DNA of 32,000 bases, from contig CP060232.1 in NCBI GenBank assembly GCA_023898645.1, positions 660,001-692,000 on the forward strand. The letters are read 5' to 3'. Made by a program: the position numbers and the translations under genes. The stretch is from Candidatus Saccharimonadota bacterium (GTDB lineage: Bacteria; Patescibacteriota; Saccharimonadia; Saccharimonadales; Saccharimonadaceae). Below, one piece after another: positions 2,882 to 24,822 of the stretch. Position 1 is the first letter of the stretch. Each line of letters opens with the position of its first letter. The notes beneath the pieces were generated by a model. The model was not told the DNA's origin. It worked only from the letters and a program-made list of their open reading frames with translations, and did not search any database.

Positions 2882-4582
2882 ATGCGGAGTAGAATAATAT
2901 TCTTCAGCATTTTGGCAGTCAGCCTATTAGGGCTCTTCGTGCCAAGTGCTCCAGTTTCCGCAACTACCGTATCTGTCACAGCCACTTGTACAGTAAAGGT
3001 AACCTTTACCGCGACTGTACCAAGTAGTGTCGAACACGGCAAATACTTTACGGTAAGTAACATTACCGTCAGTCCAAAAAATAGCTACGGCTTAACCGTG
3101 ACGTCATCTGTTTTCAACATGTCAGCCACCAATACTTCTTCAAGTTCCTATAGCCAAAACTTTCTCTACACGTCGCCAAGTCCTACAACGGGTCACAGCA
3201 CTTACACGGCATATTACCCAAACTGGTCAATCAACGCCACTGGTGCCGTAGGCAGCTCGGTTGTTATCAAACTCGTAAGAACCGTTACGACCATACCCGG
3301 TTACGGCGGTAGTCCAGTCACATGTAATTTTACGCAAACGCTCGCCACAGTACCAATCGTAGCCCCCGCACCGACACCAACGCCGACGCCGACGCCCGCA
3401 CCGACACCAACGCCGACGCCGAATCCAACCCAAAACCCAACTCCGAATCCAACCCAGAATCCAACTCCGAATCCAACCCAGAATCCAACTCCAACTCCAA
3501 CCCCAACATCATCCTCGTCACCATCACCATCAACAGGAAGCGGCACCTCATCGGGCTCCTCTTCCGGGTCCTCATCAAGCTCATCCTCTGGCACAACTTC
3601 CAGTTCCGGATCATCCAAAACGACTACTAGTAGCAAAGGCACTTCCGGAAGTACGTCAAAGTCGAAAAACACTTCAGCGTCAAGCCAGCAAATCGATCAA
3701 AATGCAACCGTTGTACCACTAAACATCGAGATAAAAGATAGTTCCGGCAATTTAGTAAACGGCGCAGAAGTAACACTAGATGGATCACAAAAAATTACGA
3801 CCGATTCCAAGGGATTAGGAACGTTTTCTAATGTGCTGACAGGTAGTCACGTGTTACTTGTTTCATACAACGGCCAAACAACAAGCCATGATGTAACCCT
3901 AGGCGTAGATCATATCGGCGAGGTCGTAGCAGTTAAGCTTCCGGCAGTAAAACGACCACTCAATCTAGTAGCCGTTACCGTCGCCGTTGTTTCTGCCATC
4001 ATACTAATAACCGGCGGTACAATATTCATACTGAGACTTAAGCGTATGGCTAATGGCACACTAATCGTTGCTCCATCTACAGCCATACATGGCGTCATTG
4101 CTGGCTCAGTAGGCCAGAGCCCTGTAGGGCATACACTCAGGCCCGTACCTGCAATCTCAGTCTTCACACCACAACCAGTACCTGTTAACCCAGCCCCATG
4201 GGAACTGCCAAGGGCTTTAGCTGAGTCGCTCAATCAAGCCCAACCGACAACTCCCGTGCAGACCTCTACGGTTCCTCAGCCAGTTCAACAGGCTCAGCCG
4301 ACTCCAACAACGACAATACCGCAGCCAGCTCAGCCGACTCCAGCAACGACAATACCGCAGACAGCTCCAACAGTTCAACCGACTCAACCAACAACCGCAA
4401 CGGTGACGCCCAAGCCAAGTCTACCGGTTCAACCGGCTCAACCATTAAATACCGTCGTGACGCCCCTCCAAAGCAATCCCTCACCTGCAGCCAATCAGCC
4501 GCAAGTAAGTTCACAACAACCGCTGCAAGCACCTCCTGAAGTCACGCATACTGACAACGAACCTCAAAATGTAGTGATTTAG
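2882..4582 (+). CDS. Secreted, membrane-anchored surface protein with Pro/Thr and Ser-rich linkers, a CarboxypepD_reg-like beta-sandwich segment, one TM helix and a P/Q/T-rich C-terminal tail
   Basis: 566-aa ORF. Signal peptide is MRSRIIFFSILAVSLLGLFVPSAPVSA. It contains (PT)n and NPTQNPTP repeats and a long Ser/Gly/Thr tract. The segment VPLNIEIKDSSGNLVNGAEVTLDGSQKITTDSKGLGTFSNVLTGSHVLLVSYNG resembles carboxypeptidase-regulatory-like domains. TM helix is LVAVTVAVVSAIILITGGTIFIL. Confidence 0.75.
   Translation: MRSRIIFFSILAVSLLGLFVPSAPVSATTVSVTATCTVKVTFTATVPSSVEHGKYFTVSNITVSPKNSYGLTVTSSVFNMSATNTSSSSYSQNFLYTSPSPTTGHSTYTAYYPNWSINATGAVGSSVVIKLVRTVTTIPGYGGSPVTCNFTQTLATVPIVAPAPTPTPTPTPAPTPTPTPNPTQNPTPNPTQNPTPNPTQNPTPTPTPTSSSSPSPSTGSGTSSGSSSGSSSSSSSGTTSSSGSSKTTTSSKGTSGSTSKSKNTSASSQQIDQNATVVPLNIEIKDSSGNLVNGAEVTLDGSQKITTDSKGLGTFSNVLTGSHVLLVSYNGQTTSHDVTLGVDHIGEVVAVKLPAVKRPLNLVAVTVAVVSAIILITGGTIFILRLKRMANGTLIVAPSTAIHGVIAGSVGQSPVGHTLRPVPAISVFTPQPVPVNPAPWELPRALAESLNQAQPTTPVQTSTVPQPVQQAQPTPTTTIPQPAQPTPATTIPQTAPTVQPTQPTTATVTPKPSLPVQPAQPLNTVVTPLQSNPSPAANQPQVSSQQPLQAPPEVTHTDNEPQNVVI
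3368..3493 (+). repeat. In-frame tandem DNA repeats inside the surface-protein gene (about 2 x 30 bp, then 3 x 24 bp)
   Basis: gcaccgacaccaacgccgacgccg occurs twice with a 30-bp period. This is followed by three 24-bp units aatccaaccca[a/g]aa[c/t]ccaactcc[g/a], which encode NPTQNPTP. Confidence 0.85.
4292..4363 (+). repeat. 2 x 36-bp in-frame tandem repeat in the C-terminal tail of the surface protein
   Basis: gctcagccgactcca[a/g]caacgacaataccgcag[c/a]ca is repeated back to back. It encodes AQPTPTTTIPQP / AQPTPATTIPQT. Confidence 0.85.
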
Positions 4583-4698: not shown

Positions 4699-5892
4699 TT
4701 ATTTTAGGATGAACGTCAGTGCTTTACCAGATTTACCAGCACGACCAGTTCGGCCTATGCGGTGCACATAATCGTCATACACTTTCGGTGGATCAAAGTT
4801 GATCACGTGCGAGACTCCCTGGATATCGATGCCGCGCGCAGCAACGTCAGTAGCAACAAGTACGTTTACTTCGTTGTTCTTAAAACTCCTCAAGGCTCGC
4901 TCACGTTGCGACTGAGACTTATTGCCATGAATCGCTACGGCCGGAAGATCACTGTTCGTCAAATTATCAGCAAGTCGCTGAACTCCGTATTTAGTCTCGC
5001 CAAACACGATAACTTTTTCAAACTCAGGCTGTTGCAAAAGTTCAGTCAAAAGCTCAATCTTGTGAGCCTTGTCGCGGGCATGCACGACATCTTGCTCAAT
5101 GTGATCGTTACTCTGGCCCTTAACAACAGACACTGTTACTGGACTACGCATGAACTCTTCAACGATCATTTTAACGTCTTTGGTCATGGTCGCACTGTAA
5201 CAGAATGTTTGACGGTCCTTTGAAAGTTCCTCTTCGATAGTTCGAATATCTTTCACAAAGCCCATGTCGCACATACGGTCAGCTTCGTCGAGTACAAATG
5301 TTGTCACGTTTTGCAGGCGCAAAACACGGCGATCGATTAGATCTTTAATACGACCTGGTGTACCGATGATAAGATGCGGCCCACGTTTAACCTGCTGAAT
5401 TTGCCTGCTAATGTTCGCCCCGCCCACTACTAGAGTAGAGAATAGTCGTTGACCAGCTGAAAAACGGCGGAACTCTTGGTCGATCTGCTGAGCCAACTCA
5501 CGCGTAGGCGCAAGTATAAGCACGCTTACAAGGCTAGGATCAGTCGACAATTTTTCGATGATTGGCAACAAGAATGCAGCCGTCTTACCCGTACCAGTAT
5601 TCGCAAGACCAATGATGTCCTGGCCGTTTAGGGCAGGCGGAATACACTGATCCTGAATAGGGGAAGGGTTAACAAAACCAAGATGCTCAAGAGTTGCAGT
5701 AGTGCGTGAGTTTAAACCGAAATCGGTAAACTTATGCGTTGGCACATACGGCACCTCTTCTGCAATTTCAACTGCCTTGTTAATGTAACGACTATAGGGG
5801 ATAGCCGATGTTTTAGATTGATATGAATTACGACGCTTATGCGGCGCAAAATTACTGCGGCGATTGCCGCTAAACCGGGAATTATAGTGCAT
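4699..5892 (-). CDS. DEAD-box ATP-dependent RNA helicase
   Basis: 397 aa with a complete motif set: Q motif (F...PSPIQ), I ANTGTGKTAAF, Ia PTRELA, Ib TPGR, II DEAD, III SAT, V ARGID, VI HRIGRTGRAG. AAAGG RBS lies 5 nt upstream of the ATG. Confidence 0.92.
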   Translation of the reverse strand: MHYNSRFSGNRRSNFAPHKRRNSYQSKTSAIPYSRYINKAVEIAEEVPYVPTHKFTDFGLNSRTTATLEHLGFVNPSPIQDQCIPPALNGQDIIGLANTGTGKTAAFLLPIIEKLSTDPSLVSVLILAPTRELAQQIDQEFRRFSAGQRLFSTLVVGGANISRQIQQVKRGPHLIIGTPGRIKDLIDRRVLRLQNVTTFVLDEADRMCDMGFVKDIRTIEEELSKDRQTFCYSATMTKDVKMIVEEFMRSPVTVSVVKGQSNDHIEQDVVHARDKAHKIELLTELLQQPEFEKVIVFGETKYGVQRLADNLTNSDLPAVAIHGNKSQSQRERALRSFKNNEVNVLVATDVAARGIDIQGVSHVINFDPPKVYDDYVHRIGRTGRAGKSGKALTFILK

Positions 5893-6108
5893 TAGATACC
5901 TTTCTTGTACGTTTATGCATGATGAACGACAAGATTATCTAGTAATGCAAGTATTCACCCAGTAGAGATTGTTCAACTACTATAGACATAGTTTAACATA
6001 AGTTTATTTGTTTTACAAGCCTAATGACTAGCTTTCTGCAATCCATCCGGCACGCCTCGCTCGTGCGTGTTATACTCCGTGCAGTCAACATAACCAGAAA
6101 GAGACACT

Positions 6109-6267
6109 GTGAATAATATCTGGACAGTAATACTTTTAGTCGTAGTCTGTGTTGTTGTCAGCTACTTCCTGAGCCAAATCTATGTACCGCTAGGATTATT
6201 AGGTTACGTCGGCGCACTTGGACTTATAGGCACATACCTTTTCAAAAGAAACCGACGCATACAATAG
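6109..6267 (+). CDS. Small (52 aa) two-helix membrane protein, hypothetical
   Basis: GTG-initiated ORF below the track cutoff: VNNIWTVILLVVVCVVVSYFLSQIYVPLGLLGYVGALGLIGTYLFKRNRRIQ. It is strongly hydrophobic with a basic C-terminus. A 10-bp-stem terminator follows at 6341-6374. No clear RBS. Confidence 0.4.
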   Translation: MNNIWTVILLVVVCVVVSYFLSQIYVPLGLLGYVGALGLIGTYLFKRNRRIQ

Positions 6268-6458: not shown

Positions 6459-6899
6459 GTGTTAGTCATCAAAAAACGTTTAGCGCGTCGGAAGCTTATA
6501 TTATTTGGAGGAATCGCATCCCTTGCGATCATTGCTACCGCCGACACAACCATGCACTTGCAAGCCGCCGACTCATACATTCGACCGCATAGCTCACCAT
6601 CGCCAGTAAAAATCGAAAACACCAGACCGGTAACACAAAGTGTCGACACTAAACAGAGCAAGAAGCCTCAGGAATCAACTGCTCCCGCTACAAACGATAG
6701 CTCCGCTACACAGGTGAGCACCGCGCCAGCCGCACCTATCATCTCTGCACCCGCAAGTAGCACGACGCCCGCACCAGCACCAACCCCCGCATCGACCCCG
6801 ACGCCAACTCCAGTTTCGACTCCTTCACCATCGCCGACCGTTAATCCTACTTCTACACCGACATCTTATCCATCAACAGACCCAACGTATACGCCTTAG
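6459..6899 (+). CDS. N-terminally anchored or secreted Pro/Thr/Ser/Ala-rich protein, hypothetical
   Basis: I moved the start to GTG 6459, which lies 6 nt after AAGGAGG (6446-6452). The track start at 6432 would place that RBS inside the ORF. The protein has a basic N-terminus plus a hydrophobic helix LILFGGIASLAIIATA, then a low-complexity PT-rich tail. Confidence 0.65.
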   Translation: MLVIKKRLARRKLILFGGIASLAIIATADTTMHLQAADSYIRPHSSPSPVKIENTRPVTQSVDTKQSKKPQESTAPATNDSSATQVSTAPAAPIISAPASSTTPAPAPTPASTPTPTPVSTPSPSPTVNPTSTPTSYPSTDPTYTP

Positions 6900-21318: not shown

Positions 21319-21657
21319 CTATTTGGCTGCCGCAGCGGTCAGTTGTTCCCGTAGCGTCGACTCCGGTACCATGCCGATGATGTTGTCGACTTGTTTGCCG
21401 GCCTTGTACACTATCATGTTTGGGATGCTCTGCACTCCATGCTCCCCGGCAAGCGCGTTGTTGTCGGCAGACTCTTCAATGTTAACTTTTACCACATCTG
21501 TAGTGTCGTCGAGTTTATCTGCTAGTGAAATCAACGCCGGTGACATCGCACGGCATGGCGGGCACCAAGCAGCCCAAAAATCTACCAGTACGACTTTGTC
21601 GCTCTTTAGTACCTTCTCTTCAAATTCCTGTTTGGTCGTTGTGTTATATAAAGCCAT
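21319..21657 (-). CDS. trxA: Thioredoxin with a WCPPC active site
   Basis: 112 aa with thioredoxin-fold hallmarks: VLVDFWAAWCPPCR, VKVNIEE, IPNMIVYKAGK. TATACT lies 6 nt upstream of the ATG on the minus strand, with no RBS. Confidence 0.92.
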   Translation of the reverse strand: MALYNTTTKQEFEEKVLKSDKVVLVDFWAAWCPPCRAMSPALISLADKLDDTTDVVKVNIEESADNNALAGEHGVQSIPNMIVYKAGKQVDNIIGMVPESTLREQLTAAAAK

Positions 21658-21736
21658 ATACTTAGTATAGCGTATTTGCGCCGGCTGATTGCGGAGGTTG
21701 GTGACTATGCGTAAAATCGGAGTTTTCTTATCTGTT

Positions 21737-21751
21737 CAGGGTTAGACCCTG
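21737..21751. repeat. REP-like hairpin
   Basis: cagggt-tag-accctg. It abuts the 5' edge of 147-bp repeat copy A and is related to the AGGGTTAAACCCC motif family. Confidence 0.6.
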
Positions 21752-21752
21752 A

Positions 21753-21899
21753 ATCCATTCGCGCGAAGTCGAAGGGTGACATCTGCAGACACCGGAAAGT
21801 CGGGTGGCGGCGGGCAGTCATGAACCGAGGACTGTTTGAACCCGACAGTAGCGCCTGACGGCGTGAGTTTCGCAGGTTCTGATTGCTTGACGTCGCATG
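21753..21899 (+). repeat. 147-bp direct repeat, copy A (variant copy of the candidate RNA element)
   Basis: Identical to 23806-23952 except A at 21858 versus T at 23911. It is bracketed by REP-like hairpins at 21737-21751 and 21903-21918. Confidence 0.9.
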
Positions 21900-21902
21900 A
21901 GC

Positions 21903-22635
21903 TAAGGGTTAAACCCCAAGAAGTAAGAAATTATTGTATAGTTATCTTCCGTACAATTCCCGTTTGATACTGTCACGCTCGCGTTGCTCGTCTTCATAAT
22001 CTGACACAAACTCTTCGTAGACAGCACTAGATGAGAATAGTCCAAGAATCGATTTCGCATCAATCCAATCTCGGCAAATACCCATATAATCCTGATAGCT
22101 GCTATGCTCCCATGTCCTGTATTTCGAATGATTTAGGTGAATATACCGAGTAATATGCATCAGCTGAATATCATTCTCAATCCATACGGCCTTATAAGTT
22201 GATTCAAACAGCGAGCCGCGGCGCTTGTGTCGTTTATTGAAATATGCAGTATAGGCCGTGATGAGACTGGTCATAAAACGCGTGATGGCCGATTCATCGT
22301 CATATTGATAAAACAGCATATGGAAATGATTACCCATCAGACAATAAGCGATTAGATGAACGTCCGGGTAGAAGTGCTTAAACAATCTTCCGGTGTCGTC
22401 TTTGCCTTGCTCGGGCGACAAGTGGCGGGCGAGTAGATTCTCGAAATAATAACGATCCGCGTCGTCGATGAATATGTTACCCAGATTCCATCCACGGTTA
22501 TACACGTGATAATACGAGTTCGGAACAAACACCTTCACGACGTTTTTTGTTGGCATAAGTATACTATATACTAATTTACACCTTTTCGGGGTTTAACCCT
22601 TAAATCTTCGGGGTTTAACCCTTAAATCCCTTAAA
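21903..22635 (-). mobile_element. RAYT-type transposase unit: gene flanked by inverted REP-like motifs
   Basis: taagggttaaacccca (21903-21918) lies on one side. Two tandem inverted copies cggggtttaacccttaaat (22586-22604 and 22608-22626, 22-bp period) plus a partial copy lie on the other side of ORF 21942-22556. Confidence 0.6.
21942..22556 (-). CDS. REP-associated tyrosine transposase-like HUH (Y1, IS200-like) protein
   Basis: 204 aa. HUH motif is NHFHMLF and the catalytic-Tyr helix is ITRYIHLNH. Its size and the flanking palindromic motifs fit a RAYT rather than a canonical IS200 TnpA. There is no tnpB. Confidence 0.8.
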   Translation of the reverse strand: MPTKNVVKVFVPNSYYHVYNRGWNLGNIFIDDADRYYFENLLARHLSPEQGKDDTGRLFKHFYPDVHLIAYCLMGNHFHMLFYQYDDESAITRFMTSLITAYTAYFNKRHKRRGSLFESTYKAVWIENDIQLMHITRYIHLNHSKYRTWEHSSYQDYMGICRDWIDAKSILGLFSSSAVYEEFVSDYEDEQRERDSIKRELYGR

Positions 22636-22732: not shown

Positions 22733-23269
22733 TTAATTGGGGGAAATAAACCTTACGATCATAATGGGATCAACGGGCCAAGAGGAAAGACTTATCATCA
22801 TTGCGATGGTTACTATCGCCACGACGCTTAGGAGGATTCCAATGATTCCCATCGCGTCATAAGAGTTAATCGAAGCTGCGATATTTGGGTGCTGATTATT
22901 ATAGCTATAGCCCCTTTGAGATAAATATACACACGCCGTAACGATACTAATAGCAGCGAAAACGCCCCCCAGCACAGCAAAACTAAATATGAAGCCAAGA
23001 ATACCCAAGACTAAAGTAGCAACAGAAAGACGCCGCATATTCAATGAAATCGAAGTCTTATCACCATGCGACATACCGCCATTTACCATTCTACGTCTTG
23101 ACTCAATGTATAGCGCAGCAACTAAACCCATTGTAATCACATTACCCGTATTCGCGCGCGGGTCAAGGACTAGACCCAGCAAGCACAAAAGACCAAGTAT
23201 AGATAGCCCAACAATGGTTCGTACGTTGAAAATTTTTTGTTTATTTTCTGGTTGCATCTTGCTATCCAT
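22733..23269 (-). CDS. Hypothetical polytopic membrane protein
   Basis: 178 aa with 4-5 hydrophobic helices. One is a small-residue-rich helix, GILGFIFSFAVLGGVFAAISIV. Confidence 0.55.
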   Translation of the reverse strand: MDSKMQPENKQKIFNVRTIVGLSILGLLCLLGLVLDPRANTGNVITMGLVAALYIESRRRMVNGGMSHGDKTSISLNMRRLSVATLVLGILGFIFSFAVLGGVFAAISIVTACVYLSQRGYSYNNQHPNIAASINSYDAMGIIGILLSVVAIVTIAMMISLSSWPVDPIMIVRFISPN

Positions 23270-23653: not shown

Positions 23654-23805
23654 TGCCACCACTCCTTTTTATGATACTCATTGGCAAAATTATAATAGCA
23701 CGTAAAATATCGCTTTACACGGAATAACACGTACGAGTGATGAGCCTTGAGACCGTAAAAACAATCGTTTTATTATTTGGCTTTTAACACTGGTAATAAA
23801 ATATT

Positions 23806-23952
23806 ATCCATTCGCGCGAAGTCGAAGGGTGACATCTGCAGACACCGGAAAGTCGGGTGGCGGCGGGCAGTCATGAACCGAGGACTGTTTGAACCCGACA
23901 GTAGCGCCTGTCGGCGTGAGTTTCGCAGGTTCTGATTGCTTGACGTCGCATG
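23806..23952 (+). ncRNA. Candidate unclassified structured small RNA (147-bp repeat, copy B)
   Basis: A GC-rich island in AT-rich intergenic DNA. Helices: GTCGGG 23852-23857 / CCCGAC 23894-23899, CAGTC 23868-23872 / GACTG 23883-23887, CCGACAG 23895-23901 / CTGTCGG 23908-23914. The 5' and 3' ends can also pair (CCAT/ATGG, GCGA/TCGC, GTC/GAC). A plus-strand terminator follows. I recognised no known RNA family. Confidence 0.35.
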
Positions 23953-23957
23953 GCTTT

Positions 23958-23988
23958 ACCGCGTGGCGAAGCCGTCACGAGGTTTTTT
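23958..23988 (+). terminator. Hairpin plus T-run 5 nt after repeat copy B
   Basis: accgcgtg ... cacgaggt pairs at 7 of 8 positions. There is an inner GC-GAA-GC hairpin, then tttttt (23983-23988). A second AT-rich palindrome follows at about 23993-24018. Confidence 0.5.
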
Positions 23989-24055
23989 GCTTCGTTTTTT
24001 GCCGGCACAAAAAATGAAGGCGTTTTGGTACTTACGCAAAAAAGTACTAGAGTTA

Positions 24056-24083
24056 TTGACATTTCCCACTCCTTTGCTATACT
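24056..24083 (+). promoter_or_regulatory. Strong sigma70-like promoter of the rplJL operon
   Basis: TTGACA - 16 nt - TATACT, with TGc immediately upstream of the -10 (extended -10). Confidence 0.7.
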
Positions 24084-24089
24084 TCATAC

Positions 24090-24297
24090 AGCATTACACC
24101 AAAGACCGTAGCTGTCGCAAGACTTAATTCGCTACCGAGGCGTAAAACTACCACCATTGTTTTATCCACCCGAAAGGTCTTTGATTACAACTGCGAGTAT
24201 CAAAGACCTTCTTTTATTCTCAAAGTTGCAAGGACCTAACGGTGTAATGAATACCTTAACAACTCGGATCGAAAAATAATTAACCAAGGAGAATCTT
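24090..24297 (+). promoter_or_regulatory. rplJ 5' leader (L10-leader-like) with an attenuator hairpin at 24174-24218
   Basis: The UTR is about 200 nt. It contains a GTAGC...GCTAC helix enclosing a GTC-GCAA-GAC GNRA hairpin. A 12-bp stem aaggtctttgat / atcaaagacctt follows, then cttttatt. The RBS AAGGAG lies at 24286-24291. Confidence 0.55.
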
Positions 24298-24822
24298 ATG
24301 GCGATTTCAAAATCGAAAAAGAACGAATTGGTTGCTGAAGTTTCAGAATCTCTAGCGACGTCAAAGCTAACAGTTTTCGCAAAGTATGACGGCCTAAGTG
24401 TTGCAGACATGCAAGCACTTCGCGGTCAGGCTCGCGAAGCTGGCGTAACGATCAAGGTGGTCAAAAACCGCTTGGTCCGCGTAGCAATGAGCGCAAACGA
24501 TACGTACAAAAACACCGATACCGCCCTTCTAACTGGTCAATTGCTTTACGCAATGAGCAGCGAAGACGAGATCGCTCCTGCAAAAGTACTCGACGGCTTT
24601 GCCAAGACCAACCCGGCCTTGCAGTTCGTCGGTGCATTTGGCATGGAAGGTGAACTCATGGACGCAGCCGAAGTCACTGCTCTTGCTAGCTTGCCTAGCA
24701 AAAACGAGCTTGTTGGCCAAGTTGTATCTATGTTGCTATCACCAGTTAACGACGTCACAAACGCGCTTTCTGGCAACCTACACGCCCTATTGGACGGCGT
24801 AGAAGCCAAGGCTACTGCTTAA
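24298..24822 (+). CDS. rplJ: 50S ribosomal protein L10
   Basis: 174 aa. The N-terminal KSKKNELVAEV...LTVFAKYDGLSVADMQALRGQAREAGVTIKVVKNRL is typical of L10, and it lies immediately upstream of rplL. Confidence 0.95.
   Translation: MAISKSKKNELVAEVSESLATSKLTVFAKYDGLSVADMQALRGQAREAGVTIKVVKNRLVRVAMSANDTYKNTDTALLTGQLLYAMSSEDEIAPAKVLDGFAKTNPALQFVGAFGMEGELMDAAEVTALASLPSKNELVGQVVSMLLSPVNDVTNALSGNLHALLDGVEAKATA

Follow-up and report, generated by a model that had tools for sequence, protein, structure and literature searches.

Copy B of a 147-nt direct repeat, together with its 3' flank (about 23783/23806-23988), may form a stand-alone, terminator-ended small-RNA gene on the plus strand, specific to this lineage of Saccharibacteria. 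We put this forward tentatively as the best explanation of the locus in the window (the whole 32,000-nt stretch of DNA that was analysed). The transcript would be ~150-205 nt long, with a weakly structured 5' part up to ~23845, followed by a 31-bp imperfect rod and a 48-nt apical domain with a 7-bp hairpin on top; a Rho-independent terminator would lie directly 3' of the rod. Copy A would have arisen recently by duplication of only the first 147 nt, and lies at the 3' end of a RAYT-type HUH unit. Transcription of the candidate RNA is predicted from the sequence. Terminator-ended bacterial sRNAs usually base-pair through an open part, and by analogy the open 5' part of the candidate may let it regulate by base pairing. 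The original prediction of an unclassified structured small RNA holds in its general idea and in its choice of the plus strand, but the switch between nested helices and a hairpin that it had proposed is replaced here by the 31-bp rod and the 7-bp hairpin. The features of the locus are listed in Table 1.

Table 1. Features of the repeat locus and its surroundings, in order of position in the window
Feature	Position	Strand	Comment
Diverged REP-like palindrome, core GGGTTAGACCC	21735-21756	+	last bases abut or overlap the first bases of copy A
Copy A, truncated duplicate	21753-21899	+	carries A21858, which breaks the 7-bp hairpin
Terminal inverted-repeat arm of the RAYT unit, palindrome GGGTTTAACCC	21903-21942	-	starts 3 nt past the end of copy A
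RAYT-like Y1 (HUH) transposase gene, 204 aa	21942-22556	-	between copies A and B
Other inverted-repeat arm with two tandem 22-nt REP units (22585-22606, 22607-22628)	22563-22628	+	
178-aa membrane protein gene	22733-23269	-	between copies A and B
DUF5652 gene, 79-82 aa	23414-23662	-	adjacent to and divergent from copy B
Sigma-70-like promoter, TTGAGA-18-TATTAT, 10/12 matches	23747-23776	+	consensus match only
Copy B of the repeat	23806-23952	+	5' and central part of the candidate RNA
Rod, 5' strand	23846-23879	+	minimum free energy fold, pair probabilities mostly at least 0.95
63-aa ORF, in protein records (NCBI, nr)	23871-24062	-	antisense to the 3' half of copy B and the terminators
Apical hairpin CCGACAG/CTGTCGG	23895-23914	+	perfect 7-bp stem, 6-nt loop; pair probability 0.95-0.97 in copy B
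Rod, 3' strand	23928-23961	+	pairs with the 5' strand; last 9 nt (23953-23961) outside the repeat
Intrinsic-terminator-like hairpin, 7 pairs (5 G-C) then T6	23962-23988	+	
Second terminator-like hairpin, T-rich tail	23990-24029 (hairpin to 24019)	+	directly ahead of the rplJ promoter
rplJ promoter TTGACA-16-TATACT and L10 leader (RF00557)	24056-24223	+	context, outside the element; promoter 24056-24083, leader 24081-24223

The two copies of the repeat are spaced 2053 nt apart and are 99% identical (146/147 positions), the sole difference being A21858 in copy A against T23911 in copy B. Copy B is located in a 635-nt spacer between the DUF5652 gene on the minus strand and rplJ. The GC content of the 147-nt block is 58.5%, as compared to 47% for the window and 37-40% for the flanking spacer, in agreement with its earlier description as a GC-rich block inside AT-rich intergenic DNA. 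No diverged further copies of the block were found within the window, which holds two copies in total. The duplication is genuine, as independent assemblies of the same strain in ENA and Logan reproduce it, either at 99.9-100% identity or by breaking k-1 nt into the repeat: the Logan contigs end exactly 30 nt inside it and a k141 ENA contig (L009) ends 140 nt inside. Two further ENA contigs run through copy A and all of the sequence separating the repeats, with 99.9-100% identity. In ENA, contigs L095 and L096, which stem from different samples, share ends at 21563/21564, the same point inside trxA, and at 23799-23801, 5-7 nt ahead of copy B. The repeat explains neither end, and the shared ends could reflect a strain-level junction polymorphism or an assembly effect.

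In the minimum free energy fold of the plus strand, the rod is formed by 16 G-C, 8 A-U and 7 G.U pairs, interrupted by two G/A oppositions and two single-base bulges; there are no A.C oppositions. The 48-nt apical domain caps the rod and contains the 7-bp hairpin. For the stretch 23843-23961, chosen post hoc once the minimum free energy fold of a longer stretch was known, the plus strand folds at -54.8 kcal/mol, as compared to -41.1 ± 4.2 kcal/mol for shuffles (z = -3.3, 0/150), and the minus strand has z = -0.5. Stability of one strand over the other, a mark of structured non-coding RNA, is thus seen in this post hoc window and argues for the small-RNA reading. With DNA parameters the same stretch gives z of just -1.6 (plus strand) and +0.2 (minus strand). 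A decaying DNA palindrome would be expected to show both G.U and A.C oppositions. The low DNA score and the seven G.U pairs with no A.C therefore point to a fold at the RNA level rather than the DNA level, with the qualification that the plus strand is rich in G+T, which by itself favours G.U pairing and is controlled in part by the shuffles. The 147-nt block taken alone has no extra stability over shuffles (z = -0.8 on the plus strand, -0.6 on the minus strand), and this, together with the post hoc choice of the folded stretch, weakens the small-RNA reading.

Beyond the repeat boundary the rod keeps its register for another 9 nt, and this extension adds -7.7 kcal/mol. Only 0.43% of random 9-mers drawn from the window equal that gain (p about 0.004), and the corresponding flank of copy A gives just -0.6 kcal/mol. 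Copy B and its flank therefore make a coherent, complete unit of which copy A is a truncated copy; as the RNA unit passes the 3' edge of the repeat, the 147-nt repeat itself is not the RNA. Copy A has neither the outer 3' strand of the rod nor the promoter-like site found upstream of copy B, and, as had been noted for the terminator, neither of the terminator-like hairpins is present there. Judged from these missing parts, copy A is most likely non-functional as an RNA gene.

The helix strings described in the original prediction are all present: GTCGGG (23852-57) with CCCGAC (23894-99), CAGTC (23868-72) with GACTG (23883-87), and CCGACAG (23895-901) with CTGTCGG (23908-14). The last pair, the 7-bp hairpin, forms with high probability in copy B, but its occurrence is within chance when taken alone, as 6.7% of dinucleotide shuffles contain a perfect hairpin of at least 7 bp. 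Helices of 6 bp likewise occur in the element in ordinary numbers as compared to shuffles (p = 0.15). The nested helices GTCGGG/CCCGAC and CAGTC/GACTG did not survive; their probability in the ensemble of 23806-23988 is about 0, and a fold in which they are enforced is 7.4 kcal/mol worse. They compete with the long rod and not only with the 7-bp hairpin, and a two-state switch is therefore unsupported. A riboswitch was rejected, given the 7.4 kcal/mol cost of the alternative fold and the fact that rplJ is served by a separate promoter and L10 leader, both kept in relatives that do not have the element. The single difference between the copies does break the 7-bp hairpin in copy A, as had been pointed out. 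It had also been taken as a compensatory-type clue, a term that does not fit one substitution breaking one pair in one of two near-identical copies; since the change merely breaks a pair, it is uninformative about the structure.

The hairpin and T6 terminator reported downstream on the plus strand was found again, directly after the rod. The sigma-70-like site upstream of copy B would imply a start near 23783 and an RNA of ~205 nt. Copy B thus has the layout of a terminator-ended sRNA gene, a 3' terminator with a promoter upstream on the same strand, both recognised by consensus match only. Promoter-like sites are in no excess here (7 found, 5.9 expected from shuffles), and this too counts against the small-RNA reading. 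The genes neighbouring upstream lie on the minus strand, and therefore there is no upstream plus-strand gene for the two terminators to end. The small-RNA reading gains from this, from the way in which the T6 terminator and the 10/12 promoter-like site bracket copy B while the rod outruns the repeat, from the absence of a coding signal and from the GC content (58.5% versus ~38%).

No family of Rfam 15 (4227 covariance models) was placed on the element at the gathering threshold or at E<=10, with queries of 2.5 kb and 196 nt, in line with the original prediction, which could not match the element to SRP, RNase P, tmRNA, 6S, tRNA or a set of riboswitch motifs. The best element scores at E<=10 are noise, far below threshold (RAGATH-28, 15 bits; sno_ncR3, 13 bits; isrO, 12 bits). 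The L10 leader is the single match at the gathering threshold in the window. ARAGORN found no tRNA or tmRNA. At the protein level, Pfam and NCBIfam gave no family in any open frame of the element, and tblastn with the upstream genes of relatives, run as a check for a coding relic, gave no similarity to it. A coding relic or pseudogene fragment was therefore rejected, as no frame showed protein similarity in these searches.

Relatives of the element were sought by sequence and by position. A DNA-pattern search gave 0 matches in GTDB species genomes (for which the pattern was verified on the window itself), JGI metagenomes and IMG/VR, and blastn gave none against phage, plasmid and E. coli genome records. 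Every other contig carrying the element is of the same strain (99.9-100% identity). Hundreds of homologs of the L10 protein (24298-24822) share 75-96% identity with it, and the named sources among those listed are all Saccharibacteria/Saccharimonadales. The element was not found in the L10 relatives L001-L004 and L098. In three of them (L001, L003 and L098) L10 is 86-90% identical to that of the window, and homology begins at the rplJ promoter, for L001 and L098 at 24055/24056 (the -35 box), for L003 by 24073. In all three, the promoter is closely preceded by the end of an ordinary gene, so the element is absent there. Everything upstream of 24055 differs between the window and these three relatives, and the region upstream of rplJ is therefore a hot spot for gene turnover. 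In L001 (~5806-5985) and L003 (~5801-5990) the L10 leader is separated from the rplJ Shine-Dalgarno by an additional ~130 nt of GC-rich sequence; the two inserts are unlike each other and unlike the 147-nt element, and the window (24255-24280) has no insert.

Loci anchored on TrxA in GTDB, mostly from unrelated phyla, included no carrier of the element, and a scan of JGI data anchored on DUF5652 found no relative. One TrxA relative, the Saccharibacteria genome UBA6664 (L011), has an MDR-NUDIX RNA motif (RF02918, 75.8 bits) at 6120-6178 on the minus strand. Four RAYT loci from three relatives (L091-L094) share the REP arms with the window, and the 147-nt block is absent from all four. The small-RNA reading is weakened by the lack of a homolog in the collections searched and by the rplJ and RAYT loci of relatives that do not have the element. 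The failure to find relatives is absence of evidence and not counter-evidence in a lineage that is thinly sampled.

A rival reading is a non-functional relic, in which foreign or degraded GC-rich DNA in a variable region was duplicated by a RAYT/REP-linked rearrangement, with fortuitous hairpins and rod. We regard this as unlikely, but as an explanation to be taken seriously. All that lies upstream of 24055 is lineage-specific with respect to the three relatives, and close relatives are lacking for the genes between the copies as well: the best relative of the DUF5652 protein found by protein search is 48% identical, and the members of the 90%-identity cluster of the 178-aa protein are all of the same strain. 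The ordinary stability of the 147-nt block alone, the 7-bp hairpin within chance and the lack of element homologs in the collections searched also fit a relic. It would not account for a rod that is stable on one strand and has G.U but no A.C oppositions, nor for its continuation in register into the unique flank. The well-formed terminator after the rod, with no upstream plus-strand gene to end, speaks against it as well, as does the lack of protein similarity in any frame.

The surroundings of copy A raise a different explanation, that the block is a DNA-level element, either a strand-specific single-stranded DNA hairpin or a small mobile cargo (MITE- or REPIN-like) handled by the neighbouring HUH (RAYT) enzyme. 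The RAYT-like protein scores 32 bits against Pfam Y1_Tnp, which passes the cut-off, and 30 bits against NCBIfam REP_Tyr_transpos, which does not. At E<=1e-10 there are 481 homologs, of which the 120 listed share 58-82% identity with it and have about the same length, and all those listed with a source name come from Saccharibacteria. The 40-nt inverted arms with GGGTTTAACCC that flank the gene are conserved beside RAYT homologs in relatives, and the gene neighbours differ at every locus examined (L091-L094). The gene looks like a widespread element in the phylum, single-copy mobile or domesticated. A literature search brought up no publication that connects RAYT with Saccharibacteria or Patescibacteria.

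REP-like palindromes border copy A on both sides at a distance of 0-3 nt, and all four palindromes of this kind in the window are clustered at this site; without copy A, the two bordering palindromes would make a REP doublet. We infer that copy A was copied from copy B into a REP site. The HUH enzyme possibly helped the insertion; alternatively, a 2053-bp circle may have integrated by a Campbell-type event, or a deletion may have followed a tandem duplication. The substrates of RAYT and IS200-type enzymes are folded single strands, and handling of the block by such an enzyme would explain the exact place of copy A between two REP palindromes. The rod, moreover, still forms on the plus strand with DNA parameters, but its z of just -1.6 is a weak DNA signal. 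Neither end of copy B has a REP palindrome, and the RAYT loci of relatives keep the REP arms but not the element. In one of these (L092) a REP-bracketed spacer, tested to see whether such spacers fold in general, is unstructured. As regards MITE-like features, the element ends pair weakly (CCAU.../...AUGG), pairing of the ends having been described in the original prediction; there are two copies in the window and none diverged, and neither a long terminal inverted repeat nor a target-site duplication is evident by eye at the element junctions. On balance a DNA-level element is improbable. Two further readings were rejected. The block is not a REP or REPIN, as it has no sequence in common with the 22-nt REP unit and is absent from the four RAYT loci of relatives; and the copies are not attL and attR of an integrated island, as the 1.9-kb segment codes only for the Y1 HUH protein and two small membrane proteins, with no tyrosine or serine integrase.

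The small-RNA reading and the RAYT unit could be joined if the HUH (RAYT-type) enzyme had picked up the initial 147 nt of a small-RNA gene of the host and inserted them exactly between its own REP sites. We consider this very improbable. Were it true, read-through from the RAYT gene on the minus strand would carry a target complementary to the copy B RNA at 146/147 positions, making a newly formed regulatory pair of sRNA and transposase, and the locus would be direct evidence that RAYT moves non-REP cargo.

The minus strand opposite the 3' half of copy B has a 63-aa ORF that might itself be the functional unit, perhaps a small toxin, with the plus-strand RNA of copy B as its 3'-overlapping antisense, as in TxpA/RatA. 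The ORF has a strong Shine-Dalgarno-like start (AAGGAG, 6 nt, then ATG) and a protein record in NCBI and nr, and it would converge on the candidate RNA with an overlap of ~118 nt. Its start lies inside the conserved rplJ promoter, however, and the frame crosses the terminator hairpins; the sole nearby minus-strand promoter-like site is weak (9/12) and located inside the L10 leader. Among 1.84 billion cluster representatives the ORF has no homolog but itself, its 90% cluster having one member, and for this reason it is probably spurious. Its hydrophobic stretch of ~8 residues is too short for a membrane helix. The convergence of a small ORF on an RNA with ~118 nt of 3' antisense overlap is shared with the TxpA/RatA and BsrG/SR4 type I pairs, but here the ORF has no homologs, no convincing transmembrane segment and no toxin-family match. 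A functional toxin ORF is accordingly a highly doubtful account of the locus.

A divergent member or fragment of a housekeeping RNA (6S, RNase P or SRP), missed by the Rfam models in a poorly sampled lineage, is scarcely credible: GGAAAGUC-GGG and GAACCCG resemble RNase P CR-I and CR-V, and the rod is loosely like 6S RNA in shape, but none of these families appears at E<=10 with the 196-nt query, and absence from the same loci of close relatives would be unexpected, though the gene could lie elsewhere in those genomes. An RNase P RNA fragment was rejected since there is no Rfam match and alignment to E. coli rnpB is within chance, the Smith-Waterman scores lying inside the shuffle distribution (97/500 for the full sequence, 22/500 for the 5' part, 126/500 for the 3' part). 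6S RNA (RF00013) was rejected as well, with nothing at E<=10 and an apical helix of only 7-9 bp, far too short for the 6S architecture. The candidate is in a similar size range to 6S RNA and has a long irregular closing helix, but in the candidate no large central bubble leads into a long terminal helix.

The preferred reading, a small-RNA gene made of copy B and its flank, has its closest likeness in terminator-ended trans-encoded sRNAs, recognised as orphan promoter-terminator pairs. Like these, the candidate is intergenic and would be ~150-205 nt long, with a stable GC-rich hairpin body, a Rho-independent terminator directly after it and a promoter-like site upstream. It differs in its 31-bp rod, unusually long for a base-pairing sRNA, and in having no homologs in the collections searched. 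The resemblance to REP/REPIN and RAYT systems is in the Y1/HUH gene flanked by inverted GGGTTTAACCC palindromes, with copy A exactly between two of them; the block is, however, unrelated in sequence to REP units, copy B ends without REP, the block is absent beside the RAYT genes of relatives, and there are two copies in the window, not many. If copy B is transcribed, a lineage-specific regulatory RNA would be added to Saccharibacteria, ultrasmall episymbionts for which, to our knowledge, almost no small RNAs have been described; none surfaced in our literature search. The element is carried by one strain only, and we regard it mainly as an annotation candidate that opens no long-standing question. 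The truncated copy between REP palindromes documents, on a small scale, how the neighbourhood of a RAYT gene rearranges in nature.

Two minor observations concern other parts of the window. Both trxA and the RAYT gene (21657-21675 and 22557-22575, minus strand) have a TATACT/TATAGT box 6-7 nt upstream of the ATG and no Shine-Dalgarno, an arrangement that suggests leaderless mRNAs. Periodic 12-nt repeats of the CCGACGCC type are located at 3360-3510 and 6763-6841, the first inside a large ORF (2882-4582), and probably encode low-complexity surface-protein repeats.
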